Shown piece after piece: positions 1,847-30,685 of a DNA stretch of 64,000 bases. The notes beneath the pieces are model-generated. The model was given only the letters and a program-made list of their open reading frames with translations, did not search any database and was not told the DNA's origin. The stretch is taken from the IMG/VR virus record IMGVR_UViG_2609459856_000007, positions 28,436 through 92,435 of that record; one strand, written 5' to 3'. A program made the translations under genes and the position numbers. Every line of letters starts with the position of its first letter. The first letter of the stretch is position 1. Source of the DNA: a virus (taxonomy: Duplodnaviria; Heunggongvirae; Uroviricota; Caudoviricetes).

Positions 1847-1864
1847 TTAAGTAAGTGCTTACAC
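1847..1864. promoter_or_regulatory. palindromic TAAGTA-n-TACTTA motif in divergent helicase/ParB intergenic region
   Basis: ttaagtaagtgcttacac; family recurs at 11 sites. Confidence 0.35.
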
Positions 1865-1865
1865 A

Positions 1866-2564
1866 ATGTATTGTATCAAAAATATGGATGTGAAAATTAC
1901 GATTCTACAGGTGGAAGTCGCGAACCTGCGTCCGAACCCCTGGAATACCAACTCCGTTGGGGCGCAAAACTTCGAAAAACTGAAAGGTTCCATCGAAAAG
2001 TTGGGCTTTTTTAAGCCAATTCTGGCGCGAGAGCTGGACGGCGGCATTTTTGAGATTCTCGGTGGCGAACATCGCTGGCGTGCCGCGATGGAGCAGGGCA
2101 TTTCAACGGTTCCCGTCATCTCCGTGGGCAAAATTAACGACCTGGTGGCCAAACAGATGTCCCTCGTCGACAACGAGCGCTACGGCGAAGACGATCAGGT
2201 CGCTTTGCAGCGCTTAATCGAAGAAATCCAGTCTGAAATCGACTACCGGTTGTCCGATATCGCCCCGTATGACGACGAAATGGCGGCAACACTCGCCAAA
2301 GCGTCCGTTATCGATCTTGAAGCGCTGGAAGCGCTCTCCCGTGGCGATGACGAGCCGGTCGATGAGGACAAACGCGAGAAAACCGAGCGAGTCGGCGCTG
2401 AACACCAGACGATGCGCTTCAAGGTGACGTTTGATGCGTCAGATCGGGTCGCCGACACCATCAAAACCATCATCAAAGAGCAGGGAATCAATACCGGTAA
2501 CGAAATGGAGAACGCCGGGGAAGCCCTGGTGTGGCTGGTCGACTACTACAAGGAGCGTATGTAA
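1866..2564 (+). CDS. ParB/Srx-like nuclease domain protein
   Basis: ILGGEHRWRAA motif typical of ParB N-terminal domain; start could be 1884. Confidence 0.7.
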   Translation: MYCIKNMDVKITILQVEVANLRPNPWNTNSVGAQNFEKLKGSIEKLGFFKPILARELDGGIFEILGGEHRWRAAMEQGISTVPVISVGKINDLVAKQMSLVDNERYGEDDQVALQRLIEEIQSEIDYRLSDIAPYDDEMAATLAKASVIDLEALEALSRGDDEPVDEDKREKTERVGAEHQTMRFKVTFDASDRVADTIKTIIKEQGINTGNEMENAGEALVWLVDYYKERM

Positions 2565-3232
2565 TGACCAAAAACTTTGAAATCGTCTATCGAAACCCGG
2601 CAGAACTCATCCCGTATGAGATGAACGCCAAAAAACATGACGAACAGCAGATCCGCGATCTGGCGGCCGCCATCAAAAAGCGCGGTTTTGACCAGCCGAT
2701 CACGGTCGACAAGCACGACGTCATCATTACTGGCCACGGTCGTCGCGAGGCGGCTCTTCTGGCTGGTCTGGAGCGTGTGCCGGTCATTGTTCGCGACGAT
2801 CTGAGCGAAGAAGAAGTGAAGGCTAAGCGTCTGGAAGACAACCGCCTGGCCAGTATTGACTACGACGCCATCAAATTGCAGCAGGAACTGGAATCCCTGG
2901 TGCTGGGCGACGTCGAGGTCTTCGGTTTTGAAGAGCGCGAGCTGAACGTGCTTGTCGGCAGCATGACCGAAGAGATGGAAACCGGCTCTCTGGTGCTCGA
3001 TCTGGGCGAAGAGACGGAGCGCCAGAAGGAAGAGCACACCGAGATCAGTCGCGAAGTGGCCTCTGAAGAAGTCCGCGTCATCGACGTATTGGGCTTTAAA
3101 ACGCTCCCTGCTGGCTCTGCCATTGTGGTTGGGGATTTGCTTGCCCACATGGAAGAAATCACGGGAGAGAGCGGGGTAGACGCTTTCGTGGCGTATGCGG
3201 AGAAAGTTTCTTCTGGTGAGCTGGCCGCATGA
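2564..3232 (+). CDS. ParB-like nuclease domain protein (second copy)
   Basis: ITGHGRREAA motif; ATG overlaps upstream stop (TAATG); ORF track start 2531 is an upstream GTG. Confidence 0.7.
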   Translation: MTKNFEIVYRNPAELIPYEMNAKKHDEQQIRDLAAAIKKRGFDQPITVDKHDVIITGHGRREAALLAGLERVPVIVRDDLSEEEVKAKRLEDNRLASIDYDAIKLQQELESLVLGDVEVFGFEERELNVLVGSMTEEMETGSLVLDLGEETERQKEEHTEISREVASEEVRVIDVLGFKTLPAGSAIVVGDLLAHMEEITGESGVDAFVAYAEKVSSGELAA

Positions 3233-3867
3233 GCAAATACACCATCAACGTATCGTTTCAGACCCGCGTGAACAAAACCACGCGCACGCTGGAGATTGCC
3301 GAATCGTTCGGTCTTGGCCTGGACGAAAAAGAGTGGACGCTTTACGACAATCTGGAGCTGGAAGTGAAGCAGGGCGATGTGGTGTACATCACCGGCCAAT
3401 CCGGTTCCGGTAAATCCGTTGTGCTGCGCGAGCTGCAACGCCAGATGAAGGATGAAGGGCTTTCTGTAGCCTCCATCGATGACTTTGCCTTCGACAATGA
3501 GGTTAACGTCATTGACCAGCTGGGCAAAACCACCAGCGAAGCGCTGGGGCTGCTGTCTATGGCCGGATTGAATGACGCCTATCTCTTTGTGCGTAAGCCA
3601 TCCGAGATGTCTGACGGCCAGAAATACCGTCTCAAGATCGCCAAGCTGATCGAGTCCGGCGCGAAAGTCTGGGCTGCCGACGAATTTGGCGCTGTTCTCG
3701 ACCGTGTAACCGCCCAGGTTGTGGCGTCGAACCTCCAGCGTGCCGCCCGTAAGGTTGGTGCGACGGTAATGGTGGCGACGACCCACGAAGACCTGAAGAA
3801 CGCGCTGCGCCCGGATATGCAGATCACCAAGCACTACAAAGAACGCGTGAAGGTGGAATATGCCTGA
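3229..3867 (+). CDS. minimal ABC-type ATPase domain protein
   Basis: Walker A GQSGSGKS, signature-like SDGQKYR, Walker B VWAADEF, H-loop TTHE; ATGA overlap with upstream gene. Confidence 0.65.
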   Translation: MSKYTINVSFQTRVNKTTRTLEIAESFGLGLDEKEWTLYDNLELEVKQGDVVYITGQSGSGKSVVLRELQRQMKDEGLSVASIDDFAFDNEVNVIDQLGKTTSEALGLLSMAGLNDAYLFVRKPSEMSDGQKYRLKIAKLIESGAKVWAADEFGAVLDRVTAQVVASNLQRAARKVGATVMVATTHEDLKNALRPDMQITKHYKERVKVEYA

Positions 3868-4114
3868 TTTGAAGATCGTAGAGCTGAAGCCATCGAAAGA
3901 GGCTGACAACAACAACGTTGAAGTCATCCGCCTGCTGGAAGAAGCACTCCAGTACGCCAGAGAAGGCAAAAGCCAGAGCCTGGCACTGCTGATGATCAAC
4001 AACGACGGCAGTGTGCTGGATTGCTGGCATAACGGTGGGCGTCCATACGTCATGGTTGGGGCGATGGAATCGCTTCGCCTGGACTTCATCAATGCCAATA
4101 TCGAGCGTAGGTGA
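3860..4114 (+). CDS. hypothetical protein
   Basis: 84-aa ORF translationally coupled in operon. Confidence 0.4.
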   Translation: MPDLKIVELKPSKEADNNNVEVIRLLEEALQYAREGKSQSLALLMINNDGSVLDCWHNGGRPYVMVGAMESLRLDFINANIERR

Positions 4115-4119
4115 TCGAC

Positions 4120-5037
4120 ATGACAGGCATCATCATCAAACGCTACCGCCCGGAAGAGTTCCCGCGTCATCTGGACTTTCTGGAGCGTATGACCGTTACC
4201 AAAGGCACGGTTGAAGACTGGCACGCGCTGAAGTCGCTGCACTACAAGACGGATGGTAAGCCGTTTGCGCCAACGTATTATCGCTGCGAACTGGACGACC
4301 GGCTGGTGGGCGTCGTGGTTATGGCTTACCCGAAACTGCTGCTGGCGCCTCGCCATCGCATGTTTCCTAAGCTGAAGCCAACCACCAATACCACCGTGGC
4401 CAACCAGTATTGGGGGCGGTACGTGAACAACAACTTTGCGGTGATCAGCCGTTCCGTTGTGGACACTCAGTACCGCGGTGTCGGCGTCTCCTATCGAATG
4501 ATTAACCTGGTTAGCAGGATGCACGACCGGCCAATCATCGAGATCCAGTCGTCGATGAGCAAATACAACCCGTTCGCCATGAAAGCAGGGTTCCAGTTCA
4601 TCCGTCCGGAGCGTCCGAAGAGCTATGAGAGTGCGTTGCGTGTCTTCCAGCGTCATTTCCGTTCCGACCCTGGCGACAACGAAGCGATCGTCAAAGAGCT
4701 GTTTGCCATGAGTGAGTCTCGCCGTCGTCGTGCGCTGCGTGATCTGGTCGCTGACTACCACAAGAACAGTTCCCTGGCCAAAGCCGGGCGTAATCGTGGC
4801 ACGACGATTCAGGACATTGCCGACAGCCTGGTGGACGAGGCCAGCATCGTGAAGCTGCTCAAGGACATTCACAACCTGAGCTTCACGTCTCCGCTGTATG
4901 GCGTGTACCGAAACCCGGACTTTGGTCGTCAGCTGCCGGACACGCTGCCACTGCTGGCATTCGACAAACAGCCTTTGAATAACCCTCTTGAAATTGCATT
5001 ATCCGAAGAAGCCCCCGCCGATCGCAGACCGTGTTAA
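4120..5037 (+). CDS. hypothetical protein, possible GNAT-like fold
   Basis: AGGTGA RBS before ATG 4120; YRGVGVSYRMINLV resembles acetyl-CoA binding motif A (weak). Confidence 0.4.
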   Translation: MTGIIIKRYRPEEFPRHLDFLERMTVTKGTVEDWHALKSLHYKTDGKPFAPTYYRCELDDRLVGVVVMAYPKLLLAPRHRMFPKLKPTTNTTVANQYWGRYVNNNFAVISRSVVDTQYRGVGVSYRMINLVSRMHDRPIIEIQSSMSKYNPFAMKAGFQFIRPERPKSYESALRVFQRHFRSDPGDNEAIVKELFAMSESRRRRALRDLVADYHKNSSLAKAGRNRGTTIQDIADSLVDEASIVKLLKDIHNLSFTSPLYGVYRNPDFGRQLPDTLPLLAFDKQPLNNPLEIALSEEAPADRRPC

Positions 5038-5258
5038 CGCAGTGAACCGCATGTTGATGAGTGCCTCGGGCGAAACCCGGTTGTACATCGATCCGAAGTG
5101 CAAACACCTCATCGACTCGCTGGAGAAGGTGATCTACAAGCCAGGCTCACGCGATATGGATAAGACTGGCGGCATCGAACACAGTGCGGATGCGTTAGGT
5201 TATCCGGTTCATCGTAGGTATCCGGTGAAAAATCGTGTTATTCTTGGTGGATCTAGAT

Positions 5259-5274
5259 AGGTAAGTACTTACCT
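5259..5274. promoter_or_regulatory. perfect 16-bp palindrome AGGTAAGTACTTACCT upstream of portal-like gene
   Basis: Member of recurring TAAGTA-n-TACTTA motif family. Confidence 0.4.
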
Positions 5275-5293
5275 AATAGGAAAAGAAAATCAA

Positions 5294-6868
5294 ATGGAAT
5301 TGACTGACAAGCAAATCAAAGACCTTGTGGCACGACGCCACCCAGAATATGAGAAGAAAAAAGAACATTGGGACTTCCTCGCCAGCACCTACGCTGGCGG
5401 GCGTGCCTGGTTCAACGACAATATCTTCCGTTACTTCAAAGAGGGCGATCAGGAGTTCAAAGAGCGCCTGGAACGCGCTTATCGCTTCAACCATACGCGC
5501 GAAGTGGTAAACCTCATCAACAAATACCTCTTCAAAGAGGTCATTCACCGCAACACTGATGAAGCACCGGAGCAGATCCGCAATTTCTGGAAGCGAGCCA
5601 CGCGCCAGAACGCCTCCATCGATGCGTTTATGGCGGCTATCGATCTGCAATCATCCATTTATGGCCGTATCTGGGTTGTCGTGGATAGCACGATGAACGT
5701 CGATGTTGAGTCTGTTGCAGACGAGAAGAAAAATGATGCGCGTGCCTACGCTTACTGGATTTCGCCGCAGCAGCTGCTTGATGTTGCCTGGGATGAAGAC
5801 GGCAATATGTTGTGGGCGCTGATTGTTGAAATCGCGCGCGACGACGAAGATCCGTTCACTTCAACCGGGCAGGAATACCAGCGTTACCGTCTGTGGACGC
5901 AAAACGAGTGGTATCTGTTCCGTGAAGAAGTGAAGAAGGGTTCCGGAAATAGCGGTCGCCGTCAGGCCAAAGTCGTTCTGGAGGATAGCGGCCAGCATAA
6001 TCTGGGCGTGGTGCCGGTGTTCCCGGTGGATTGCATTGGTGAAAGCGAGTCTCCGTATTTTAGCCCGTCGTTGATTGACGATATTGCCTATCTTGATCGC
6101 GCCGTGGCCAACTACCTGTCGAACCTTGACGCGATTATTCAGGATCAGACATTCAGCCAGTTAGCGATTCCGGTTCAGTCCCTGCTGCCGGGCGATGAAA
6201 ACCACACCAAAGTGCTCGAAATGGGGACAAAACGTGTCTTCACCTTCGATTCTGAGAGCGGTAATCAGCCATTCTATCTGTCTCCAGACCCGAAACAGGC
6301 TCAGATGATCATCACCACGATTAAGACGGTGATTAATGAGATCTACCATTCCGTTGGTGTGGCTGGTGAGCGAACCAAGCAGGATAACGCGCAGGGTATC
6401 GACAACTCTTCGGGGGCAGCGAAGATGTACGACTTCCAACGTATTAACAGTCTGTTGGTGACAAAAGCAGAGCGCCTCGAAAGGGCAGAACGCCAAATGA
6501 TGGAGTTGGCTGCGAAATGGATGGGCATCGAATTGGATGAAGACCACTCTCTGATCGCTTACCCGGAGAGTTTCGATATTCGTGGTCTGACTGACGAATT
6601 TGCCGTCGCTGAGAAATTGTCGCTGTTACAGGCGCCTGATTCTGTACGTCGTCATCAGATGGAAATGCTCATAGAAAAGATCTTCCCGAATATTTCCGAA
6701 GCGATGCAAAAGGAATTTAAAAAAGATCTCTTGAAATTTCCTCTAAAAAATGCTCCTGGCGCCCTTGAAAATAAGTCAGTACTTACTTATGATCGAGATA
6801 CAGTCCAAGAAAGCGGACAAGATCAACCCCGAGGGAATGGGGACTCATCTACTCAAGAGACCGAGTGA
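5294..6868 (+). CDS. putative portal protein
   Basis: 524 aa, no NTPase motif, immediately upstream of scaffold-like and capsid-like genes; assignment by size and position only. Confidence 0.5.
   Translation: MELTDKQIKDLVARRHPEYEKKKEHWDFLASTYAGGRAWFNDNIFRYFKEGDQEFKERLERAYRFNHTREVVNLINKYLFKEVIHRNTDEAPEQIRNFWKRATRQNASIDAFMAAIDLQSSIYGRIWVVVDSTMNVDVESVADEKKNDARAYAYWISPQQLLDVAWDEDGNMLWALIVEIARDDEDPFTSTGQEYQRYRLWTQNEWYLFREEVKKGSGNSGRRQAKVVLEDSGQHNLGVVPVFPVDCIGESESPYFSPSLIDDIAYLDRAVANYLSNLDAIIQDQTFSQLAIPVQSLLPGDENHTKVLEMGTKRVFTFDSESGNQPFYLSPDPKQAQMIITTIKTVINEIYHSVGVAGERTKQDNAQGIDNSSGAAKMYDFQRINSLLVTKAERLERAERQMMELAAKWMGIELDEDHSLIAYPESFDIRGLTDEFAVAEKLSLLQAPDSVRRHQMEMLIEKIFPNISEAMQKEFKKDLLKFPLKNAPGALENKSVLTYDRDTVQESGQDQPRGNGDSSTQETE
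6773..6790. promoter_or_regulatory. TAAGTA-n-TACTTA motif inside 3' end of portal-like gene, upstream of scaffold gene
   Basis: taagtcagtacttactta. Confidence 0.3.
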
Positions 6869-6890
6869 TAAGTAACGAAAAGGTATTTCT

Positions 6891-7787
6891 ATGAATCTGT
6901 GGCAAATGCTTATGGCCCGTCGTGGCCTGATGGATGTAGCCGAAGCGCATGAGCGCGGCGGCGCTGGTGGCGGTGCTCCTGCTGGAGACAATGAGCAGAG
7001 CATTCAAGACCCAGGCAAACAGGGCGAGCAAAAAGAGCAACCGAAGGGTGACGACGATGAGTATGCCGGTATGACTCAGGAAGAGTTGCTGGCAGAACTG
7101 CGTAAGTCTAAGAAAGCCGGTGCTGATCTGTTGAAAGAGAACATGAAGCGCAAGGAGAAAGAGCGCACATTGGCCGATCAGCTGGCTCAGTACGGTGATA
7201 TTGACCCGACGCGTGCTCGTCAGCTTCTCGAAGCTGAACAAGCCGCAGAAACCGCACGTCGGGAGGCGGAGCAGGCTGAACTGGAACGTCGTGGTGAGTT
7301 CGATGCTGTGAAAAAGCAGATGATCGAAGCACACCAGACTGAACTGGCACAGCGCGACGAACGCTACTCCGCTCTGGAGAGCGAGAACGCCGCACTGAAG
7401 GCTCAACTGGTCGAAATGACTGTTGGTGTTTCCTTCAGCAGTTCTGCTTTCCTGCGTGACAAAGTTCTGATGACTCCGGCTAAGGCACGCGTTATCTACG
7501 GCTCTCATTTCGAAGTGGGTGAAGACGGTAGTGTTGTGGGCTTTGATAAGCCAGCCGGTCAGAAAGAACGTGCAGTTCTGGTTGACGGTGAAGGCAAGCC
7601 GTTACCGTTCGAATCCGCGATTGAGCGCATTCTGCGTGCAGATCCGGAAGCTGACGCACTGTTGCGTAGCGAAGCCAAGCAGGGTGCTGGTTCCAATAGC
7701 AAACCGACCCACAAAGTAAGCCAGCCGAAGAGCAAGTCGACTATGGATAAGTTGACCTCCGGTCTGGGAAAAATCGGACTCAAGTAA
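6891..7787 (+). CDS. putative scaffolding protein
   Basis: Acidic N-terminus, long Ala/Glu/Gln-rich predicted coiled coil, located between portal-like and capsid-like genes. Confidence 0.5.
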   Translation: MNLWQMLMARRGLMDVAEAHERGGAGGGAPAGDNEQSIQDPGKQGEQKEQPKGDDDEYAGMTQEELLAELRKSKKAGADLLKENMKRKEKERTLADQLAQYGDIDPTRARQLLEAEQAAETARREAEQAELERRGEFDAVKKQMIEAHQTELAQRDERYSALESENAALKAQLVEMTVGVSFSSSAFLRDKVLMTPAKARVIYGSHFEVGEDGSVVGFDKPAGQKERAVLVDGEGKPLPFESAIERILRADPEADALLRSEAKQGAGSNSKPTHKVSQPKSKSTMDKLTSGLGKIGLK

Positions 7788-7813
7788 CATCTTAAATCAT
7801 AGGGAAATGAAAG

Positions 7814-8689
7814 ATGCCATTACTGCGTGATGAAGCTGAAAAGCTGTCTAATAACGAACTTGAGCAGGGTGTGATCGAGACCATCATCGATCGCGATGAC
7901 CTGTTCGCTATTCTGCCTTTCATGAAGATTAATTCTAAGGCATACCTTTACAACCGCGAAGCTACCCTGAGCGAAGCTACCTTCATTGATGTGAACGACA
8001 CCATCACTGAAGGCGCAGCAACCTTCAGCGAACACGTTGCGAAGCTACGTATCCTGGCAGGCGACGTAGACGTCGACAAATTCCTGGCGACCACTATGTC
8101 CGACACCAACAACCAGCTGGCAATCCAGGTTCGTCAGAAGGTGAAAGGTCTGGCTCGCGCATTCCGCCGCAATCTGATTCTGGGCGACTCCAGCACCAAC
8201 ACCAAAGCGTTCGACGGTATTCCGAAACTGATGCACGACGATCAGAAGATCGACATCGAAGGCGCTTCCATGACCTTCTCCATGTTCGACGAACTGGTCG
8301 ACGCGGTGAAAGATCTGGGTGCGGACTGCATCATGATGCGCTCCGAGCATCTGCGTGCTTATCGCGCTCTGCTGCGTACCGTTAATATCGGCCCGTCCGA
8401 AATTATGATGGAAAACTTCGGTCGACCGATGTTGTGCCACAACGGTGTACCTTTCATCGTGAACGACTTCATCCCGACTGACGCGGGCAAAGCAAGCATC
8501 TACTGTCTGCACCTGTCCGAAGAGAACGGTGTGACCGGTCTGTATGGCGGTGAAAACGCTGGTATCGTTGTTGAGAACATCGGTACTGTTCAGAACAAAG
8601 ACGCAACCCGTACCCGCGTTAAGTGGTACTGCTCTCTGGCGAACAAGCACGACAAAGCTATCGCCGCGCTGACCAATGTAAAAATTTGA
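7814..8689 (+). CDS. putative major capsid protein
   Basis: 291 aa, position after scaffold, followed by strong terminator; no motif-level confirmation. Confidence 0.5.
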   Translation: MPLLRDEAEKLSNNELEQGVIETIIDRDDLFAILPFMKINSKAYLYNREATLSEATFIDVNDTITEGAATFSEHVAKLRILAGDVDVDKFLATTMSDTNNQLAIQVRQKVKGLARAFRRNLILGDSSTNTKAFDGIPKLMHDDQKIDIEGASMTFSMFDELVDAVKDLGADCIMMRSEHLRAYRALLRTVNIGPSEIMMENFGRPMLCHNGVPFIVNDFIPTDAGKASIYCLHLSEENGVTGLYGGENAGIVVENIGTVQNKDATRTRVKWYCSLANKHDKAIAALTNVKI

Positions 8690-8702
8690 TCAGAATGATA
8701 GG

Positions 8703-8720
8703 TAAGTAGTTATCTACTTA
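8703..8720. promoter_or_regulatory. TAAGTA-n-TACTTA motif
   Basis: taagtagttatctactta. Confidence 0.35.
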
Positions 8721-8723
8721 ATA

Positions 8724-8751
8724 TGGGTGGGCTATACGCCCACCTTTTTTG
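8724..8751 (+). terminator. rho-independent terminator after capsid gene
   Basis: GGGTGGGC-tatac-GCCCACC stem followed by TTTTTT. Confidence 0.65.
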
Positions 8752-8763
8752 TAGGAGCGATAA

Positions 8764-9090
8764 ATGCCAGAACAAAAGATGAAAATCATGGAGGAGACGT
8801 TTGCGGATTTCACAGGGCATATGTGCCGTGCCGGATTCACCAACTCCGTCTCCAACGAGCCTCTGAGCGAGCGCCAGCAGAACCATCTTGCGGCTTGCTT
8901 CCGGACAGTTCCGTTCACGCAGTCTGTCAGCGTGGAGTCTGTTGCTCTGACTCCTGATTCTGTCTCTGTTGAGAAGGGGAAGTCAGTCAAATTGCGAGTT
9001 GATGTGCAACCGTCAAACGCAACCAATCAAAAAGTCACCTGGACTTCTCAAAATAGCGACAAAGCGACCGTGGATCAGAACGGTATCTGA
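8764..9090 (+). CDS. bacterial Ig-like (Big_2) domain protein
   Basis: RBS GGAG; C-terminal SVSVEKGKSVKLRVDVQPSNATNQKVTWTSQNSDKATVDQNG matches Big_2 pattern. Confidence 0.65.
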   Translation: MPEQKMKIMEETFADFTGHMCRAGFTNSVSNEPLSERQQNHLAACFRTVPFTQSVSVESVALTPDSVSVEKGKSVKLRVDVQPSNATNQKVTWTSQNSDKATVDQNGI

Positions 9091-10323: not shown

Positions 10324-10344
10324 ATAAGTAAGTATATACCTATT
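10324..10344. promoter_or_regulatory. ATAAGTAAGTAnATACCTATT motif, followed by hairpin 10346-10367
   Basis: Near-identical 21-mer also at 17735-17755. Confidence 0.4.
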
Positions 10345-10387
10345 TGTGTGGGCAAGGACGCCCACACTTCAAGGAGTGAAAAAGAAC

Positions 10388-15460: not shown

Positions 15461-15637
15461 GTAATATAGAGATGATTGTCACTTTTTTCAACAGACAAAT
15501 GAAAACAGTTACTAGCAATAGGCAATAACAACCTACTAAATAACCTTTACACCGCAGCCGTAGGCATTTAGGCTATATCACATATAAGAAAACAAGTTGT
15601 TTCAGACGATAATTATATACGCAAAGGGAACTCTCCA

Positions 15638-17734: not shown

Positions 17735-17755
17735 ATAAGTAAGTACATACCTATT
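17735..17755. promoter_or_regulatory. ATAAGTAAGTAnATACCTATT motif upstream of Toprim gene
   Basis: ataagtaagtacatacctatt. Confidence 0.4.
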
Positions 17756-19538: not shown

Positions 19539-19770
19539 ATTTTTTGTTCTGTTGATATAGGATGAACAGTTTAGACGCGGCAAGCGTCAAGTGTGCGAAA
19601 AGGGTACTTAAATTTAGTTAATATGTCAGCTTTGTTGATTTAGTTTATGGTCGGTAAAGTTACTGGGAAACTAATAACCATAAGAAATAGTACGCCATTT
19701 AATTATTGTGGCACTGCTCGTGTTTTGATTAACTAATACCTGCGATAAATATAAATAAAGGGAAGCCAAC

Positions 19771-20247: not shown

Positions 20248-20267
20248 ATAAGTAGATACTTACTTAT
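20248..20267. promoter_or_regulatory. TAAGTA-n-TACTTA motif
   Basis: ataagtagatacttacttat. Confidence 0.35.
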
Positions 20268-21161: not shown

Positions 21162-21172
21162 AACTGCGATTA

Positions 21173-21184
21173 ATAAGTAAGTAC
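21173..21184. promoter_or_regulatory. TAAGTA motif variant (ataagtaagtac)
   Basis: Upstream of 21203 gene. Confidence 0.3.
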
Positions 21185-21202
21185 AAGATTACGGTTAGAA
21201 GC

Positions 21203-23408: not shown

Positions 23409-23560
23409 TGATTCCATACATCATTTTATCATTCACTGGTGGCGTGGGCCTCGGCCTCGCAATCTGCCGCGCCCTGGTCCAGCAGGAACTGAAAACCAAA
23501 ACACTTCGTGTCGGTAAGCGTGTGTATCGGGTTGTTCACGAGACGGGAGTGCGAAAATGA
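23408..23560 (+). CDS. small membrane protein (50 aa)
   Basis: ATGA overlaps on both sides; MIPYIILSFTGGVGLGLAICRAL. Confidence 0.3.
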   Translation: MIPYIILSFTGGVGLGLAICRALVQQELKTKTLRVGKRVYRVVHETGVRK

Positions 23561-23862
23561 GCAATTTGACTTCCTTCGACTGGTGGCTGGCAACCTACCT
23601 TGTTGCGGCCGGCTTCGGATTTGCCTTTTACGTTGGTCAGTTAATCGTAAAGCTACTGCTGATCAGATTCCCCAGCCATAAACGCATAGACGACGGTCTG
23701 TGGCGTCTGGGGTCCCTGTTAGAGACGCATTACGGCGAACTCAAGGAAAACGAAACTATCACTATTCAAGCGAAGCGTTTTACCGCCATCATCACGAGAA
23801 CTCCGGAACAAAAGGGGAGCCTGATCAAAAAGATAGCAACTAAACGCATTACAGATAGATAA
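23557..23862 (+). CDS. membrane protein
   Basis: TM WWLATYLVAAGFGFAFYVGQLIVKLLLI. Confidence 0.4.
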   Translation: MSNLTSFDWWLATYLVAAGFGFAFYVGQLIVKLLLIRFPSHKRIDDGLWRLGSLLETHYGELKENETITIQAKRFTAIITRTPEQKGSLIKKIATKRITDR

Positions 23863-23880
23863 GTATTTACTTACTTATCT
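23857..23880. promoter_or_regulatory. TAAGTA-n-TACTTA palindromic motif
   Basis: agataagtatttacttacttatct. Confidence 0.35.
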
Positions 23881-24605
23881 AATATGTATAAGATCACTTT
23901 GTTTTCGTTGAGATGCGACTGTTTGAACGTTAAATATAACTGCAAACGAAGATGCATACCTGGCAGTAGCCTAAGAAGCCAAACACCAGCGAGGTCAGTT
24001 TCCAGCCTCGTTACCAAAATGGGACACACTGAGCGAGTGTGATTGCAGAACGCAGAATAGGGCATATTGCACCATCCATGCCCTATTCAATGAAGTAACA
24101 GAATGGGCGGTTGGTTTCATCATTCCATTCATCCATCCCGGTTTCAGCTGACCGTCCATTCTGTTACGTCATTTCCATTACTTATGTCGTTTATACTTGG
24201 GTTAAAAGCGGCGACGTAACCCGGCTGACTTGGTTAGTCAGCACATAACGTTGAGATCACTGATTTTTCTTAAAATCATACAGGCGATTCCACATAGCTG
24301 TAGCGACTGATCAATATGTTGGGTTGAACATTAATCGGTTCAGTGATCTCAACGTTGTGAAAGCAGGATTAATTAACCCTCTAGTGAAAACATTGTTGCC
24401 TTTATTGCCCCTGGCTTCACAACATGTATGATTCCATACATCCAATAAGATCGAAGAATCTAACGGCAATCAACCACCGAGAAAGATTCCAGATCTTCGC
24501 TCATATGAGCGAGCCACATGCCTCGTCTGGTACTAACGTAAAGTGCAAGTTGCGGGAAAGTTTCTGGCTGCCTGGTTGTCCATAAGCTAGTACCGCCGCG
24601 AAAAT

Positions 24606-24680
24606 GATGGTGTAGCTCAGTGGTAGAGCGGTTGACTGTTAATCAACTGGTCGGTGGTTCGAGTCCACCCACCATCGCCA
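24606..24680 (+). tRNA. tRNA-Asn (anticodon GTT), CCA encoded
   Basis: Cloverleaf: acceptor GATGGTG/CACCATC, D-arm GCTC..GAGC, anticodon stem GTTGA/TCAAC with loop CTGTTAA, T-arm GGTGG-TTCGAGT-CCACC, discriminator G, CCA. Confidence 0.9.
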
Positions 24681-24684
24681 ACAT

Positions 24685-24759
24685 AGCGCTGAACGGTTTG
24701 GATTCGCCACCACCGTCCGAACGAAAGACTCCGCAAATGTCGCCAGACCGTTCAGCGCT
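24685..24759 (+). other. large imperfect hairpin immediately 3' of tRNA-Asn
   Basis: AGCGCTGAACGGT...ACCGTTCAGCGCT (13-bp perfect arms, about 49-nt loop). Confidence 0.4.
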
Positions 24760-24873
24760 GTGATAGACACGGCAGACGTTTTTTAACCATTGCTTCTAAG
24801 CATCGTAGCAACACTTTTTTCAGCGCAAAATCCAAAGGGGCTTCGGCCCCTTTTTGCTATCTTATCTCTTGGT

Positions 24874-25653
24874 AATATGGGAAACAAACGTAAACAGGCG
24901 CGTCGCGCAGTCCGACAGGCACTGAAGTCAAAGCCACGTATCCAGGACTACGAAATTGATACAATCATCGTTAACGAGCAGGCTGTACACCCTACTCTGC
25001 CACCCACCAAGCCTAAACGCGACAAATCCCCCATCGAAGCGCTTAACGAGGCCCAGGCTCACTATCTTATCTCCCTAGATACCAAAGCTCTGACTTTCGC
25101 CACTGGTGAAGCAGGTTGCGGTAAGACTTACCTGGCTGCCACCGTCGCTGCGCAGCGTCTGTTGGATAAGGAAGTCGAGAAGATCATCGTTACGCGTCCC
25201 GTATTGCAAGCAGAAGAAGATCTGGGCTTCCTTCCGGGTGACATGAGCGAGAAGTTCGCTCCGTTCTTTCGTCCCGTTTATGACGTGCTAAAGAAGCGTT
25301 TGGGTGGCTCATTCCTTGAATATTGCTTAAAGCCAGAGGTGGCCAAAGTAGAAATTGCTCCCTTCGCTTATATGCGTGGGCGCACGTTCGAGAACGCAGT
25401 AGTCATTCTTGATGAGGCGCAAAACGTTACAGCGTCACAAATGAAAATGTTCCTGACCCGTATGGACGAGAATGTTACCGTCATTGTGAACGGTGATATT
25501 ACTCAATGTGATCTGCCCGGTAACGTTAAGTCTGGTCTGGAAGATGCTCTGGCTCGTTTTAGACCTTCCGCCCATGTTGGCCTTGTTGAGTTTACGACCG
25601 AAGACTGCGTGCGATCAGAACTATGCAAAATCGCACTGGAAGCCTATCAGTAA
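24874..25653 (+). CDS. phoH: PhoH-family ATPase
   Basis: Walker A GEAGCGKT, Walker B-like VVILDEAQ; ORF track start 24790 is upstream of likely ATG 24874. Confidence 0.8.
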   Translation, partial: NMGNKRKQARRAVRQALKSKPRIQDYEIDTIIVNEQAVHPTLPPTKPKRDKSPIEALNEAQAHYLISLDTKALTFATGEAGCGKTYLAATVAAQRLLDKEVEKIIVTRPVLQAEEDLGFLPGDMSEKFAPFFRPVYDVLKKRLGGSFLEYCLKPEVAKVEIAPFAYMRGRTFENAVVILDEAQNVTASQMKMFLTRMDENVTVIVNGDITQCDLPGNVKSGLEDALARFRPSAHVGLVEFTTEDCVRSELCKIALEAYQ

Positions 25654-25712
25654 GAGAGTTATACAGCCTCGATATCCAGCCATTTGGTGGCTCTCCCAGA
25701 TTAAACCCAACA

Positions 25713-25745
25713 AAAAGCCCCTTACGGGGCTTATTTATTTTTGGC
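25713..25745. terminator. bidirectional rho-independent terminator between convergent genes
   Basis: A-run, AAGCCCC-ttac-GGGGCTT, T-run. Confidence 0.65.
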
Positions 25746-26228
25746 TGTTACTAGAACGCGTCGTTTCTGTCTACCAAAACCTCTAGTAGTAACGACTCTG
25801 ACTTTCTGAGCGACATCACTTTCATTTACAGGAACCATCTGCCCCGTACTTGCATCATAAGTAAAAAGCTGCCCATCTCGAGGCTCATTCGGTGAGATCA
25901 ATGCCGCAGCTTTAACATTCATATGTGGTCTAAATGCGTACGCAACACCTGTAGCGGTTGCACTTTTGCGTCCCCGACCATCAGTAATCAAGCCAGTAAA
26001 CATTCCAAATTTTCTCGGTACAATTCGGCGACGAAATTTTGGTGTAGAATTTTCAATGATTGTTTTTATGGCAGAGGTAGTAGTGCGGGCAGGCTCCGCA
26101 TTTTCAGAAGAGGATGCGACTACTGTAGTTTGGCCCGCATCGATGGCTCGATTCATAGCATCGATACGTTCAGCCTGGCGAGCACGATATTGCTCAAGCC
26201 GTGTAGAATTTTGGCGTTCGTAAGACAT
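25731..26228 (-). CDS. hypothetical protein
   Basis: Strong RBS GAGGGGAAGG before ATG at 26228. Confidence 0.5.
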   Translation of the reverse strand: MSYERQNSTRLEQYRARQAERIDAMNRAIDAGQTTVVASSSENAEPARTTTSAIKTIIENSTPKFRRRIVPRKFGMFTGLITDGRGRKSATATGVAYAFRPHMNVKAAALISPNEPRDGQLFTYDASTGQMVPVNESDVAQKVRVVTTRGFGRQKRRVLVTAKNK

Positions 26229-26667
26229 TCGCCTTCCCCTCTGGTTCTAGGCCTACTTCAATAGTAAACCCTCTGTGTTTCTTCATGGTTACAAATCGAC
26301 AGTAAACGCCTGAAAGTTTTAGATCTGCTGGCGCAAATGTGTAAAGTGCCACGTTGAATGTATTATAGTGGTCAATAATTATTCTTTCAACGCACTTTAG
26401 GACTCTGGTTCCAGCGCCATTTGGCAGGTTTTCCATTCTTTTAAAATGAGTCTTTTCCTTCCAGTTCTGAACAGAATCGAACACTACGTCGTAATGGTTG
26501 CCGTATTCTGGGAAAATAAAATCCAGCGGAAACTCGGCAGCACAATCATACATGTTTGCTTTGGTGATTTGCGTAAAATACACACGGTATTCAACTCCGG
26601 CTACTGCAAATGTTGCTGAATGTGAACGCGGTTCGCCGTATGGAGCAAGCTCGTCAAAGTTAGTCAT
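26194..26667 (-). CDS. hypothetical protein
   Basis: Start uncertain (TTG 26712 or ATG 26667). Confidence 0.4.
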   Translation of the reverse strand: MTNFDELAPYGEPRSHSATFAVAGVEYRVYFTQITKANMYDCAAEFPLDFIFPEYGNHYDVVFDSVQNWKEKTHFKRMENLPNGAGTRVLKCVERIIIDHYNTFNVALYTFAPADLKLSGVYCRFVTMKKHRGFTIEVGLEPEGKANVLRTPKFYTA

Positions 26668-26802
26668 GATTAATGGGTTAATTGTCCTTTTTAAATATGA
26701 TACCAGATTCAATTAGACCGCGTAAAAACGCCTTACATTTGCTCCCCTTATATTAGCGGTAGATTTCACGCCGACGGCTACTTTTTTTAAAAATAGCGGC
26801 CT

Positions 26803-26837
26803 AAATGATTCCATACTTGTAAGGTATGGAATCATTT
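26803..26837. promoter_or_regulatory. perfect 14-bp inverted repeat with 7-bp spacer, candidate recombinase core site or operator
   Basis: AAATGATTCCATAC-ttgtaag-GTATGGAATCATTT, about 100 bp upstream of tyrosine recombinase gene. Confidence 0.45.
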
Positions 26838-26935
26838 TCAAAAACAGTCTATTTTACTGTTGATCATACAAAAACTGAGGCCTAACACACTGTTTATAAA
26901 TACAGTAAAAACAGGCTTCACTCAGTGAGTGGACT

Positions 26936-28039
26936 ATGAAAAACACTTTTGATAAAGCACGCGCAGCAGAAAACACCTCTAGAGAAGCCATCGAGTATCT
27001 CGAACGCGCTTCCGGTTTGTCAGCAGTGTCGACCACCAATTTCGACGGTGACATGTCGTTTTCTTCCGCATTCATGTTATTCACTCGCTTATCTTTGCTG
27101 ATAACGAGACGTCGACCTGAAATAGCTGTTCATTGTATTTTGATACATGTAATGCCGCATATCTGTGAAGTAAAAGTAAGTGACATTAGTAGGGTTTTAG
27201 TCAACCAGCTGGTGAACCCATTAATACTTGAGGGCAAGATCGTCCAGGGCAGACGTGTGTTCTCGCTGATGAAGCAGTTTCTCAGTTGGTGTGCATTTCA
27301 GGGCTTAATTGATACATCCCCATTGAACGATATGTCGCTTAACAGAGTAGCCGGTGGCGCGAAGCCCACGCCGCGCGAGCGCAAACTGACCGACGCAGAG
27401 GTCTGGGTCTTTTGGAATGTATGGGACTACTTCAACGTATGTGAGGGTACAAAGTGGGCGGCCAGATTATGCCTTGTAGCGGCCAGACGACCAGATGAAG
27501 TGCTCCGAGCTAAAAGATCAGAATTCAACCTCGAATATAATTTATGGAATCAAGGAACGAGGAATAAATCGGCTCGCCAGCACTCGTTACCATTAAGCCC
27601 GCTAATGCGCAAATGTGTTGAGGAGCTGATCAAATACGGAAAAGGCAGCCAGTGGCTTGTTCCTTCAAACAAGAAACAGGGGGAGGATGTGCCAATGTCT
27701 AAGGTGGCCATATCACAGGCGTTGAGAAGGATTTTAGAACGTCCAGAGTTGATGGAGCTTGAGCCATTTACCCCCCGAGATTTGCGTCGTACTGCGCGTA
27801 GTTACTTCCCCGCGTTAGGCATAAGTCAGGAGGTATCCCGCAAAATTATGAACCATAGTCTTGAGGGGATAGATCGAGTATACGATCGGCACGATTATAT
27901 AGACGAGATGCGAGACGCCTTAAACAGTTTTTCGGCGTACATCGCATCAATCGTAGAGAAACAGGATTTAGAGGAGATAGATCATAAGTTCAAGGGAGAT
28001 CGACTCGCTACTGAGCTAATCCGTGTAAATTTCTCATAG
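26936..28039 (+). CDS. tyrosine recombinase / phage integrase family protein
   Basis: C-terminal catalytic region with conserved Arg, LRRTA box, MNHS and RVYDRHDY. Confidence 0.75.
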   Translation: MKNTFDKARAAENTSREAIEYLERASGLSAVSTTNFDGDMSFSSAFMLFTRLSLLITRRRPEIAVHCILIHVMPHICEVKVSDISRVLVNQLVNPLILEGKIVQGRRVFSLMKQFLSWCAFQGLIDTSPLNDMSLNRVAGGAKPTPRERKLTDAEVWVFWNVWDYFNVCEGTKWAARLCLVAARRPDEVLRAKRSEFNLEYNLWNQGTRNKSARQHSLPLSPLMRKCVEELIKYGKGSQWLVPSNKKQGEDVPMSKVAISQALRRILERPELMELEPFTPRDLRRTARSYFPALGISQEVSRKIMNHSLEGIDRVYDRHDYIDEMRDALNSFSAYIASIVEKQDLEEIDHKFKGDRLATELIRVNFS

Positions 28040-28423
28040 CGACTTGATTGCCTCAACAACCCGCTCCGACGCACCACGTTGGTCACCGAAACGTCGACGG
28101 AAGGCTTCCAGAACTAGTTTTTCATCTTTAGTCAGAGGGGCTGTGCCTTCGTCGCGAAAAAACGCTAACAGCTCTGGATGACGCTCTTCCAGCACCATTA
28201 GCATCAATCGGACCGAATCGGCATCCAATGCTTTAGCCAACGCTCTGACCTTGTCGATCGGAAGCGGGATTTTGCCGCTCTTGATAAGTGAAAGATTGTT
28301 AGGATTTTTATAGCCTGCTTCTTTCGCGATGGTCGCCTGGCTTTTCGGAGAAATCGCGATTAAAGCGTCAATGTAAGCAGCGTAGCGACCTACTTTAGCT
28401 TCTGTTATTTCGTTGGTAGCCAT
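28034..28423 (-). CDS. helix-turn-helix transcriptional regulator (XRE-like), possible repressor
   Basis: ATIAKEAGYKNPNNLSLIKSGK HTH; divergent from small ORF 28680. Confidence 0.6.
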   Translation of the reverse strand: MATNEITEAKVGRYAAYIDALIAISPKSQATIAKEAGYKNPNNLSLIKSGKIPLPIDKVRALAKALDADSVRLMLMVLEERHPELLAFFRDEGTAPLTKDEKLVLEAFRRRFGDQRGASERVVEAIKSL

Positions 28424-28455
28424 AATTATCAACCTGCGTGTTTTGATTTTATATG

Positions 28456-28469
28456 GTAAGTGCTTACTG
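28456..28469. promoter_or_regulatory. TAAGTG-CTTAC palindromic motif upstream of HTH gene
   Basis: ggtaagtgcttact. Confidence 0.35.
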
Positions 28470-28679
28470 ATATTACATCAAAGGTTAGTGTTGTAAAGAC
28501 TTATCTATTTTTTTTCGTAGAGTTATTGACCACAAAAGGCTTAATTAATAGACAACTATCTAAAAAACAACTCATTTAAGAACTTAAAACTAAGTTGTAT
28601 TTGATATATAAGTATTCCGTATTGATACAATAGGTAGTAGTATTGCAAGGCATTTACGTGTTCAGTTGGATGATATGAA

Positions 28680-28892
28680 ATGAAAAAAATAACTTCTAAT
28701 TTGATCGCCCTTGAGGTCGGACATACGGTTTCAATTGACGATGATGGGGCAGCAGCCATACTCACTGAACTGCCAACAAAGTCTTTGTTACTTGACATGA
28801 AAGACGCAACCGCATACATCTTTGAGCTAAAGGGCAAGTGCTTCACTCTCATCAATACCGGCTGCGGTTCAGTAGCCGTCCGCACTATTTAA
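28680..28892 (+). CDS. hypothetical small protein
   Basis: 70-aa ORF divergent from regulator gene. Confidence 0.3.
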   Translation: MKKITSNLIALEVGHTVSIDDDGAAAILTELPTKSLLLDMKDATAYIFELKGKCFTLINTGCGSVAVRTI

Positions 28893-29004
28893 CACCCCCC
28901 TCCCATCCTCTCTAGCGCCTGTACGAACAGATTAGATGCCTGTTCGTACAGTGATAAATTACGCACATCAGAAAACAAATTGTTTTAACAACAAGGAAAT
29001 TCTA

Positions 29005-29103
29005 ATGTCCAAAAAAACCACCAAAGCTGTACTGAAAGAGGTGCAGGATTTTCGCGACTGTGTAAAACGAGTTGTAGCGATGCTTTCAGGTAAACAGATA
29101 TGA
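29005..29103 (+). CDS. 32-aa ORF translationally coupled to vWA gene
   Basis: RBS AAGGAAA; stop TGA overlaps ATG of 29100 gene. Confidence 0.3.
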   Translation: MSKKTTKAVLKEVQDFRDCVKRVVAMLSGKQI

Positions 29104-30650
29104 AAGACAAGCCAGAGGGCAAATTACCAGAACTTAAATCATCTGCCAGAAAGCCGTCGGAGAGCAAAGACGAGTCCGAGGAAACGCCAGAATCAGGTGA
29201 CGAGCCGTCTCATGGTGACTCTGCATCTAAGCCTGCCAAAGGCGAAGGCGATGACAAGGAAGAACGAGAAGATGATGCATCAGAAGAGGAAGATTCTGGG
29301 GATTCCGATTTGCCTGATTCGTTAGATAAGGACTTACCTACACACGTTAAAGATATTAGTGATACAGAAAGTAAATATACAGAAGCAGGCCACGAAGAGT
29401 CAGGAGACACCCCAGAATCCGATGCTATCGGCATGAAATCAAGTGACTCTGACACCGATGGTGATGACGGTGAGGACTCCGATACTGATCGTGGGGAAAC
29501 TGAAGAAGACGTCGAAGGCAAAAAAAATAAAGATGGTGCGGAAGTGCCCAAAGACAGTGAGTCTGGCTTTGTTCCTGCGCCGGATGAAATGACTCTGGAG
29601 GAGGCGCTAAAGGCGCTCGACGAGATGGAAGACGGAATCGGTGAAATGACCGAAGACGCACTGTCGGCCACCATCAGCAAAGAGCTTATGAGCGTCTCAC
29701 CTTCTGATTATCGGCCATACGATCGATCATACGACTTTATCGGGTTGATTGATGGAGCCGAAGAGCATGTGAAGCGCACCAGAAAGACGTTCGGTGCAAT
29801 ACCAATGCACTCACCAGTCGACCGCTACCGTATGGTGCCAGAAGGCAGAAAACTCTTTGAACTGAAAATCGAAAAACATCTGTCTGCAGGCGTTTCTTCG
29901 ACGCTGGCCAAAGACCTGGAGCGGGCCATCGCCAGCCGCAACCGAGTTCAGTTTATACCTGGTCAGAGGCGTGGGCGGATACATGGCGCGAGCCTGTATC
30001 GTCTGGCAATGAACGACGACCGAGTGTTCCGCAAGAAGGAAGACCATAGAGCGGTGAACGCGTGTGTCCAGCAGGTCATCGACTTGTCCGGCTCAATGGA
30101 TGGCGTGAAGATTCAACTGGCCCTAGCCAGTGCCTATACCATTGCGGATGCTTTAGATCGTATCAATGTCCCCAACATCATCACCGGCTTTACCACGTTC
30201 GGTAGCCCAGATTATGAAACCAGGTCGAAGCGCGGGTTTACACGCTTCGAGGCGCTCATGCTGCCCATTATCAAAAACTGGAATGAGAAAGCAAACTCTC
30301 CAGAGATCCGTGCTCGCATGGGATGCGTATGTGAGACGTTCCCCCTGCTCAATAACGTCGATGGTGAGAGTGTCGCGCAACTGGCTACCCTGTTTGCAGG
30401 GCGAATGGAGGACAAAAAGATCATGCTGGTTATGAGTGATGGGGAGCCATGTGCTACAGGTAGTGGATTCCATCAGCATTTACGAACCGTCACCAAAGAA
30501 ATTGAGACCTTGAGCGACATCGAACTGATGGCTATCGGCATTCTGACCGACGAACCACGGCGTTACTACAAAAATTACGCACTGGTTAACAGTGTTGAAG
30601 AGTTAGGGCCGTCAGTCGTCACTGAGTTATCTCGTATCATTCTTGGGTAA
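29100..30650 (+). CDS. von Willebrand factor A domain protein (CobT-like)
   Basis: About 180-aa acidic N-terminal region; MIDAS-like DLSGSM; vWA fold. Confidence 0.75.
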   Translation: MKDKPEGKLPELKSSARKPSESKDESEETPESGDEPSHGDSASKPAKGEGDDKEEREDDASEEEDSGDSDLPDSLDKDLPTHVKDISDTESKYTEAGHEESGDTPESDAIGMKSSDSDTDGDDGEDSDTDRGETEEDVEGKKNKDGAEVPKDSESGFVPAPDEMTLEEALKALDEMEDGIGEMTEDALSATISKELMSVSPSDYRPYDRSYDFIGLIDGAEEHVKRTRKTFGAIPMHSPVDRYRMVPEGRKLFELKIEKHLSAGVSSTLAKDLERAIASRNRVQFIPGQRRGRIHGASLYRLAMNDDRVFRKKEDHRAVNACVQQVIDLSGSMDGVKIQLALASAYTIADALDRINVPNIITGFTTFGSPDYETRSKRGFTRFEALMLPIIKNWNEKANSPEIRARMGCVCETFPLLNNVDGESVAQLATLFAGRMEDKKIMLVMSDGEPCATGSGFHQHLRTVTKEIETLSDIELMAIGILTDEPRRYYKNYALVNSVEELGPSVVTELSRIILG

Positions 30651-30667
30651 TAGCTTTACCCTTAAAA

Positions 30668-30685
30668 ATAAGTAACTGCTTACTA
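30668..30685. promoter_or_regulatory. TAAGTA-n-CTTACT motif
   Basis: ataagtaactgcttacta. Confidence 0.35.

Follow-up and report, generated by a model that had tools for sequence, protein, structure and literature searches.

What reads the palindrome that recurs throughout the left part of a chimeric phage-plasmid sequence, and to what effect? The sequence in question, referred to below as the window, is the 64,000-nucleotide stretch formed by positions 28,436 to 92,435 of IMG/VR virus record IMGVR_UViG_2609459856_000007 (Caudoviricetes), and the part that carries the palindrome belongs to the type of phage SSU5 and of Cyrano, the plasmid prophage of E. coli LF82. On balance, and with modest confidence, we favour the answer that the palindromes serve as distributed operators of the element's own XRE-type prophage repressor, the candidate for which is encoded at 28034-28423. 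That answer is built from sequence comparison, and the competing answers are weighed against it below.

The best-conserved positions of the motif form two hexamers six bases apart, TA(A/G)GTA-N6-TAC(C/T)TA, which sit inside a palindrome of 20-28 bp with a symmetric dyad of 18-22 bp. Alignment of the copies on their dyad gives the 20-bp consensus ATAAGTAAGTACTTACTTAT, and the extended consensus is (A/G)ATA(A/G)GTAAGTACTTAC(C/T)TAT(C/T). An earlier note on this DNA had written the element as TAAGTA-n(2-4)-TACTTA and placed it at eleven positions; all eleven do carry the element, but the formula with its 2-4 nt spacer matches only two of them (20249 and 23860), and the N6 form replaces it. Exact matches to TARGTA-N6-TACYTA number six in the window (5258, 8703, 10325, 17736, 20249 and 23860) against 0.00 in 100 shuffles, which puts the motif well above compositional expectation, the comparison that the note had named as a test of its proposal. 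With up to two mismatches there are 23 matches against 4.08 +/- 2.25 expected, a number that 0 of the 100 shuffles reach. A symmetric position weight matrix (PWM) of 28 columns, the 28-mer of the text below, finds 11-13 matches to the left of position 31,990 and 0 to the right, while block-shuffled SSU5 DNA yields 0.1-0.5 matches per 103 kb. The copies in the window are as follows.

1847..1866: TTAAGTAAGTGCTTACACAA, PWM 20.9, between the divergent helicase operon (242-1801, minus strand) and a ParB-like gene (1884-2564); orthologues at SSU5 99794, at Cyrano 105103 and in Acinetobacter pDETAB4, as the top-scoring site of that element
5257..5276: ATAGGTAAGTACTTACCTAA, exact match, PWM 28.8, 17 nt ahead of the portal gene start (5294); orthologues at SSU5 2027, Cyrano 2016 and Klebsiella L009 19962
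6771..6790: ATAAGTCAGTACTTACTTAT, within the 3' end of the portal gene; kept in SSU5 (3540), Cyrano (3523) and Klebsiella L009 (21465)
8702..8721: GTAAGTAGTTATCTACTTAA, exact match, 12 nt past the capsid gene stop
10324..10343: ATAAGTAAGTATATACCTAT, exact match, PWM 29.0, ahead of the tail-fibre gene; SSU5 orthologue at 21933
17735..17754: ATAAGTAAGTACATACCTAT, exact match, PWM 32.0, ahead of an SSU5_038-like gene remnant; SSU5 orthologue at 33596
20248..20267: ATAAGTAGATACTTACTTAT, exact match, PWM 30.9, ahead of the gene at 20309-21121
21173..21192: ATAAGTAAGTACAAGATTAC, degenerate copy with its left half intact, PWM 12.4, ahead of the gene at 21203-21679; orthologues at SSU5 39083 and Cyrano 35603, likewise half-degenerate
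23859..23878: ATAAGTATTTACTTACTTAT, exact match, PWM 29.5, overlapping the stop of the gene at 23557-23862, upstream of the tRNA/PhoH block; core 100% identical in Cyrano
28452..28471: TATGGTAAGTGCTTACTGAT, on the minus strand directly downstream of the predicted -10 of the repressor promoter
29322..29341: TTAGATAAGGACTTACCTAC, degenerate, inside cobT, a twelfth copy that was absent from the earlier list; SSU5 orthologue at 43657
30668..30687: ATAAGTAACTGCTTACTATA, PWM 20.1, between cobT and cobS; SSU5 orthologue at 45120

Ten of these 12 copies are intergenic, though 88% of the interval 1-31,990 is coding (binomial P = 2e-8), and their usual place is shortly past a stop codon and 10-100 nt ahead of the next plus-strand gene. 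The spacing of 30-80 bp upstream of start codons that had been reported holds for eight of the eleven copies then listed when it is counted from the start of the motif; counted from its end, the start codon of those eight is 10-58 nt away. The two near-identical 21-mers at 10324 and 17735 agree at 20 of 21 positions, and the two GC-rich hairpins said to come after a copy are there, at 8725-8745 (terminator-like, with a T run) after copy 8702 and at 10346-10367 after copy 10324. The first of them belongs to an order of elements, major capsid stop, palindrome, GC-rich terminator hairpin and next gene, that is kept in SSU5, Cyrano, Klebsiella and Acinetobacter (window 8702-8745; SSU5 5467-5520; L009 23375; L010 23552), with the hairpin beginning 3-6 nt beyond the 28-mer. 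A similar hairpin comes after the motif copy ahead of nrdA in SSU5 (67771).

The distribution within the window follows its make-up, which is chimeric: SSU5-type phage-plasmid DNA extends from position 1 to about 31,990 and P1-like DNA follows. Window positions 1-5001 match SSU5 97952-102952 at 97%, positions 4998-8929 match SSU5 1772-5702 at 96%, and beyond 8929 more blocks are collinear with SSU5, with large gaps between them, while from about 31,990 onwards the identity is 94-99% to P1-group phages and plasmids. The switch lies near 31985-31991, directly after the cobS stop and at the start of an SSU5_051-like open reading frame, and none of the plasmid records or complete E. coli genomes that we searched spans it. 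Given this junction, the motif finding concerns the SSU5-derived half of the window. The P1 segment was said to be free of the motif, and it holds only chance-level two-mismatch matches, at 37254 and 40509; since SSU5 has 27-28 copies and Cyrano about 28, the module specificity that had been proposed is borne out beyond the window itself.

The SSU5-type elements show what the copies precede. In SSU5, 25 of 28 copies are intergenic and stand ahead of plus-strand genes for packaging, head, tail, lysis, replication, recombination and nucleotide metabolism, while the minus-strand plasmid and moron genes mostly have no motif. The 28-mer typically starts at -11 to +16 nt relative to the preceding stop codon, and the next start codon lies 10-180 nt beyond it. 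Outside these close relatives the palindrome changes in sequence. The Acinetobacter phage-plasmid pDETAB4, with a portal protein 54% identical, has about 26 copies of AATTATTAGTAAGCGCTTACTAATATTT in syntenic places, their right flank often being TATAAT or TAATAT; in the Pectobacterium plasmid Drgb1 the palindrome reads TAGGTATTTACATACCTA, in a divergent Klebsiella lineage GATAAGTAAACACTTATCTATC, and in the Rhizobium phage RHEph10 TCAGT(A/C)AATATTGACTGA, of which 11 copies were found in 40 kb against 0.13 expected. Across the lineages that bear the repressor gene these dispersed palindromes (TAGGTAAGTACTTACCTA, TAGGTATTTACATACCTA, TTAGTAAGCGCTTACTAA and TCAGTMAATATTGACTGA) keep GTAA..TTAC in register, and in all versions, enteric, Acinetobacter, Pectobacterium, Klebsiella and Rhizobium, GTAA and TTAC are each 5.5 bp away from the dyad. 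The RHEph10 palindrome stands just downstream of a -10-like GCGCTATTC element, twice with a partial copy about 40 bp upstream, and has none of the AT-rich -10-like flanks of the enteric and Acinetobacter versions. The feature conserved across lineages is thus the dyad and not a fixed -10. The virulent relatives nickie (Pseudomonas) and BUCTxx99 (Stenotrophomonas), which share the family gene order, have no enriched dyad.

The symmetry is that of a site in duplex DNA. Among 38 distinct copies, the two halves form 319 complementary pairs against 319.5 expected when the right halves are shuffled among sites (z = -0.07), so that departures from the consensus occur independently in the two halves. 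As RNA, 7 of 11 window copies have folding energies no stronger than -3.2 kcal/mol and z-scores near 0, and the best-folding copies are few (23855-23882 reaches -10.8 kcal/mol, z = -5.5). Base frequencies are mirror-symmetric across positions 4-25 of the 28-mer, i.e. 22 bp. In alignments of orthologous sites with Cyrano and a Klebsiella plasmid, T6, A7, G9, T10 and A11 and, in the other half, T18 and A19 are 94-100% conserved, while the remaining positions are about as variable as the flanks. Independent halves together with mostly weak hairpins fit a site read by a dimer on duplex DNA and not a hairpin, and a protein-binding regulatory site is the best fit for the motif. The promoter or operator function suggested for the module in the earlier note thereby receives comparative support from the intergenic dyad, its independent half-sites and its invariant, contact-like bases.

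The protein that would bind these sites has one candidate that stands out.

28034..28423, minus strand: XRE-type helix-turn-helix protein of 129 aa, orthologue of CYRAN_45, proposed binder

The protein is 65% identical to CYRAN_45, which is listed as the putative lysogeny repressor of Cyrano and is expressed in lysogens, in which most Cyrano genes are silent (PMC9928086). Homologues of it turn up in 1003 plasmid records, spread over the same taxa as the 966 records that hold the portal gene, and the repressor gene adjoins an integrase in every annotated Enterobacteriaceae entry among the matches listed. All five lineages with the motif have the gene (the E. coli/Salmonella type, Klebsiella DS-1, Pectobacterium Drgb1, Acinetobacter pDETAB4 and RHEph10), and it was not found in nickie or BUCTxx99. 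An AlphaFold model from 23 homologues gives a confident five-helix helix-turn-helix domain at residues 13-81 (predicted local distance difference test, pLDDT, 81-89), and the nearest solved folds are Stl, C.AhdI, C.Esp1396I, the 434 repressor, SinR and ClgR. The window protein itself has no match in Pfam or NCBIfam; the homologous Acinetobacter protein passes Pfam HTH_3 with 36.1 bits at a cut-off of 23. The recognition helix is NPNNLSLIKSGK in the window and NANNLSLIKSGK in Cyrano, with one substitution (P/A), and reads NANNISLIKSGR in Klebsiella DS-1, HNNVSMLKSGK in Drgb1, NQNMVSFIVRGK in Acinetobacter and QSNMVTMIKKGD in RHEph10, i.e. the helices are related across the five lineages. The exception is SSU5, which has the sites without the repressor gene and in which the entire tRNA-cobT segment is missing relative to the window and Cyrano; we infer that SSU5 is a recent deletion derivative that lost the repressor segment. 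The earlier note had pointed to this regulator as a protein to consider, and from the co-occurrence of gene and motif, and from a copy that overlaps the predicted promoter of the gene, it is the best candidate binder of the palindromes.

That copy leads to the geometry of sites and promoters.

28470..28497, minus strand: predicted sigma70 promoter of the repressor gene, TTTACA-16-TAATAT

The core GGTAAGCACTTACC begins 1-2 nt past the -10 of this promoter, and Cyrano retains the two hexamers and the core GGTAAGTGCTTAC, despite repressor proteins that are only 65% identical. The copy at 6771 fills the spacer of a near-consensus sigma70 promoter, TTGAAA-17-TATGAT (6765-6793), which would need no activator, as fits a geometry of repression, and a palindrome likewise fills the spacer of a promoter with good hexamers at SSU5 55691. 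A protein bound at 6765-6793 or at 28497-28470 would hinder the polymerase. Together with the predicted sigma70-like minus-strand promoter 1894-1865, which abuts copy 1847, these are the only predicted sigma70 promoters that coincide with sites (3 of 11); the rest have only -10-like hexamers, and consensus sigma70 promoters are not enriched (20 found against 22.1 expected). When -10 and -35 scores were profiled on both strands of the SSU5 and Acinetobacter sites, -10-like hexamers were found at both edges of the 28-mer, at positions 1-6 and 22-27, equally good on the two strands and with mean scores of 2.4-3.9 bits; this symmetry means that direction and transcription start are not assignable from sequence. 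Most sites have no recognisable consensus -35. A weak plus-strand -35-like (TTG) signal 8-9 nt upstream of the 28-mer may partly reflect the stop codons of the preceding genes.

Enrichment, intergenic placement, duplex symmetry, co-occurrence with the repressor gene, the geometry at two promoters and the behaviour of the Cyrano orthologue in lysogens are the grounds on which we read the palindromes as operators. The circuit that we propose would work as follows. A dimer of the 28034-28423 protein would read the half-sites TA(R)GTA and TAC(Y)TA, with GTAA and TTAC 5.5 bp either side of the dyad. Copies stand at the upstream edge of nearly every lytic unit, i.e. packaging, head, tail fibre, replication and nucleotide metabolism, each overlapping AT-rich -10-like hexamers, and a repressor dimer on each of them would obstruct RNA polymerase at about 12 positions of the window and about 28 of a complete SSU5-type genome, which would keep the plasmid prophage silent. 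The copy just downstream of the repressor's own -10 would provide negative autoregulation, and all units would be freed at once if the repressor were lost or inactivated. What the sequences show is the motif with its enrichment, placement and symmetry, its independent half-sites and conserved key bases, and its company with the repressor gene; that this protein binds the sites, and that its binding represses, is what we infer.

Several findings weigh against this proposal. SSU5 keeps about 28 sites without a repressor gene, and the sites may instead serve lytic transcription. The lack of a -35 at most sites, with sigma70 promoters at only 3 of 11, is the picture expected of a class of activator-dependent promoters, and the immunity region has only one full copy. 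The co-occurrence of gene and motif tracks phylogeny, so that any gene confined to the temperate lineages would give the same pattern. Finally, a simple operator model does not explain why a terminator-like hairpin comes after a site in two places.

Two phage repressor systems are among the closest known to the proposed one. The C1 operators of P1 are asymmetric 17-mers, ATTGCTCTAATAAATTT. The C1 regulon is alike in that one prophage repressor acts on many single operators spread over a plasmid prophage of about 100 kb, ahead of separate lytic units, and the SSU5-type elements have the same layout of dispersed single sites (12-13 copies in 32 kb of the window and 27-28 in SSU5 and Cyrano). C1 differs in being a larger, unrelated protein, while the SSU5-type site is a symmetric dyad of 18-22 bp; identity with the C1 operator was rejected, the motif being symmetric, of another sequence and absent from the P1-like half. 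The XRE-type systems of the Cro/CI kind (434, P22 C2 and lambda) resemble the present case in their short five-helix helix-turn-helix protein and dyad-symmetric operator; classical operators of this kind are dyads of 14-20 bp that overlap promoters, including the repressor's own. Here too a dyad with independently varying half-sites and a helix-turn-helix repressor gene occur in the same element, and the TAAG...CTTA half-sites recall what we take to be the form of the P22 C2 operator. The layout differs: 434, P22 and lambda have 3-6 operators clustered in one immunity region, whereas the SSU5-type elements have about 28 copies genome-wide with one full copy at the repressor gene, and their protein has no peptidase domain. 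To our knowledge, none of the NarL heptamers, the RcsB box, Fur, TyrR and TrpR fits the motif.

A variant that retains the repressor, and which we regard as a minority possibility, is that the 22-bp dyad is the shared core of a lineage-specific -35-less promoter, abutting or embedding the -10, which throughout the SSU5/AB/Rhizobium supergroup would be both the point of polymerase entry and the point at which the repressor clamps. The copies ahead of terminators might then let promoter-proximal transcripts bypass termination. Unlikely, in our estimate, is the main rival idea, that the dyad, centred at about -20, is instead the docking element of a phage activator or RNA-polymerase-binding factor at -35-less promoters, with host polymerase using the right-edge TAT(C/T)AT. 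If that right-hand hexamer is taken as the -10, the dyad centre falls at about -19.5, and the Lpa-dependent late promoters of P1 reportedly consist of a -10 plus an inverted repeat near -22; in both cases an inverted repeat would replace the -35 and recur before many phage operons. The idea accounts for the missing -35, for -10-like hexamers at a fixed place at both motif edges, for the frequent TATAAT or TAATAT in the right flank in Acinetobacter, for the position of the palindrome as usually the first element past the upstream stop codon and for the retention of all sites by SSU5, a phage that lacks the repressor gene. A temporal cascade would also suit the separate palindrome AAACAAnTTGTTT, described below, which is accompanied by clear sigma70 hexamers and characterises the early and plasmid regions. 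However, the -10-like flanks are mirror-symmetric without significant strand bias and are absent from the Rhizobium version of the motif, five SSU5 sites would lose a Shine-Dalgarno sequence or start codon if transcription began 7 nt past the right-hand hexamer, and two sites lie inside promoters that already have a good -35 and -10. Set beside the Lpa promoters, the sites also differ in sequence, in the symmetry of the flanking hexamers and in the genes served, since replication and nucleotide-metabolism genes are preceded by sites as well as late genes. Gene-content comparison with Pfam and PHROG scans brought out no activator candidate, and no Lpa-like gene was identified in the SSU5 module.

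More doubtful still is binding by another phage protein, for which the main candidate is the ParB-N-domain protein of 1884-2564, acting as a KorB-like silencer or as a DNA-organising or roadblock protein. In every lineage its gene directly follows a site, which in Acinetobacter is the one that scores highest. The protein has a ParB_N domain with GGEHRWRAA, and its C-terminal HQTMRFKVTF...G...ALVWL resembles a putative Arc/Mnt-type fold. KorB of RK2 offers a precedent: it is a ParB-family global repressor with 12 dispersed palindromic operators, OB (TTTAGCSGCTAAA), which its helix-turn-helix domain reads, and the likeness extends to about a dozen palindrome copies over the promoter regions of a plasmid, with a ParB-family gene beside one. 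The difference is that the window-type protein, including its putative DNA-reading strand, is conserved in nickie and is also annotated in the Stenotrophomonas phage, neither of which has the palindromes. We rejected control of the KorB/OB type on this mismatch in distribution, nickie having the protein and not the motif. Two adjacent proteins of the window have the ParB-N domain, at 1884-2564 and 2531-3232; the first has GGEHRWRAA, an acidic linker and a C-terminal HQTMRFKVTF...ALVWLVDYY (a putative ribbon-helix-helix), and is conserved in the Acinetobacter and Pseudomonas relatives.

The other regulators considered fare no better. A phage sigma factor was rejected because searches of SSU5, Cyrano, nickie and the window with BLAST, phmmer and a family hidden Markov model gave no homologue, and a sigma70-like gene without an enteric homologue cannot explain the motif in enteric elements. 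Such a gene does follow cobS in Acinetobacter pDETAB4 (L011 20634-21299, minus strand) and in RHEph10 (L016 24598-25233), and the next gene after it encodes a four-cysteine protein (GCFG...C..C....C) that is conserved in all lineages and is shortened to 67 aa in SSU5 and Cyrano (L001 46442-46645). The 'transcriptional repressor' of the enteric helicase operon belongs to the FljA family (Pfam Flag1_repress, E ~1e-80).

L002 46897-47343: SSU5_121, FljA-family gene
L006 780-1301: CYRAN_114, FljA-family gene

This FljA-like regulator was rejected as binder of the motif since it is confined to the enteric elements, a mismatch with the wider spread of the motif. Gene-content comparison of SSU5, Acinetobacter and nickie, with Pfam and PHROG scans of the conserved unknowns, gave no other regulator candidate.

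It is very improbable that the copies are repeated cassettes mainly for recombination and module exchange, resembling the promoter-stem-loop cassettes of T4-type phages, and by now functionless leftovers in a degraded chimera. The window does give such a view some footing, its SSU5 part being heavily deleted and fused to P1-like DNA. Relative to SSU5 it is missing the small and most of the large terminase gene, every tail gene between the Ig-like gene and the J-like gene's end, the DnaB-type helicase together with the first part of the primase, and parts of cobT, and it holds a PhoH/integrase/repressor block without counterpart in SSU5; the SSU5-type part looks like a defective remnant.

Window 4998; 8929-9105; 17828; 24722-28876; 29100-29507: block losses or changes relative to SSU5

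One breakpoint falls exactly at a copy: SSU5 homology restarts at 20245, the left edge of copy 20248, upstream of which a Sel1-repeat gene (18393-19583, minus strand) stands in place of SSU5_041. The other breakpoints, about ten, are not at copies, and orthologous sites of different lineages keep the key bases, which points to selection for sequence-specific binding. Least probable of all is that the palindrome acts as an RNA hairpin or cruciform, whether as a processing site, a stabiliser of 5' ends, part of a terminator or an operator of translation, for in spite of its place in untranslated regions near ribosome-binding sites and the good folding of the few copies such as 23855-23882, no compensatory changes between halves are seen, most copies fold like shuffled sequence, start codons lie anywhere from 10 to more than 900 nt away and an Rfam scan returned only a tRNA and no family matching the motif; on the covariation test, the weak folds and Rfam together we rejected a structured RNA or intrinsic terminator as its identity.

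A few other elements of the same DNA should be kept apart from the motif.

15590-15602, 28973-28985 and 38167-38179: second dispersed palindrome, AAACAAnTTGTTT
17597-17655: long AT-rich hairpin with GC clamps and a T run, cctgtttctgtatataaataataagtaacttattaaatatatacggaagcagg tctttt
24606-24677: tRNA gene (Rfam, 76 bits), between palindrome copy 23859 and PhoH

Of the second palindrome SSU5 has 11 copies, Cyrano 9 and a Klebsiella plasmid 9 within 25 kb; the Acinetobacter element has none. Ahead of parA, cobT, terS and many small genes it occupies the interval from a sigma70-like promoter (..TTGTTA..GATAAT..) to the ribosome-binding site, and in some places a pair of copies 51 bp apart flanks the promoter. 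The copy at 38167 belongs to the P1-like half, where the 61 bp that contain it are 87% identical to SSU5. The arrangement suggests an operator read by a separate regulator. FljA of Salmonella acts on the fliC mRNA leader, and one might speculate that the FljA-family protein is the partner of the AAACAAnTTGTTT sites, which lie beside ribosome-binding sites. The hairpin at 17597-17655 has similar counterparts in SSU5 at about 33460 and 78305, which the PWM picks up weakly, and is a different element, probably a terminator. The tRNA gene has the same position as the tRNA-Asn of SSU5. In nickie, intergenic regions (L007/L008) have variable GC-rich inverted-repeat arms around a -10-like hexamer, with TCAAAC(A/G) about 5 nt on (e.g. 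CAGCGCG-TATACT-CGCGCTG and GTGCGCTC-TATAAACT-GAGCGCAC), a different and, it appears, undescribed promoter-like architecture.

In the literature that could be searched we found no account of the motif, of SSU5-type operators or of lysogeny control in these elements, and a prior description may still exist. A phage repressor with its operators is of a well-known kind, to which the SSU5-type case would add a dispersed layout like that of P1. SSU5-type phage-plasmids are common in clinical Enterobacteriaceae and Acinetobacter, often with resistance genes, and their relatives include pHCM2 of S. Typhi, much of pMT1 of Y. pestis, plasmids of Klebsiella and Enterobacter and the Acinetobacter AB group. 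If the palindromes are indeed the operators of the 28034-28423 protein, a defined operator together with a named repressor candidate would make the lysogeny switch of these elements directly testable, a simple motif scan would annotate their lytic transcription units, and the repressor helix and half-site would predict immunity groups. It may also account for the isolation of SSU5, with its repressor segment apparently lost, as a lytic phage. As for the chimera, its SSU5-derived genes would probably still be under their own silencing circuit, independent of P1 immunity.

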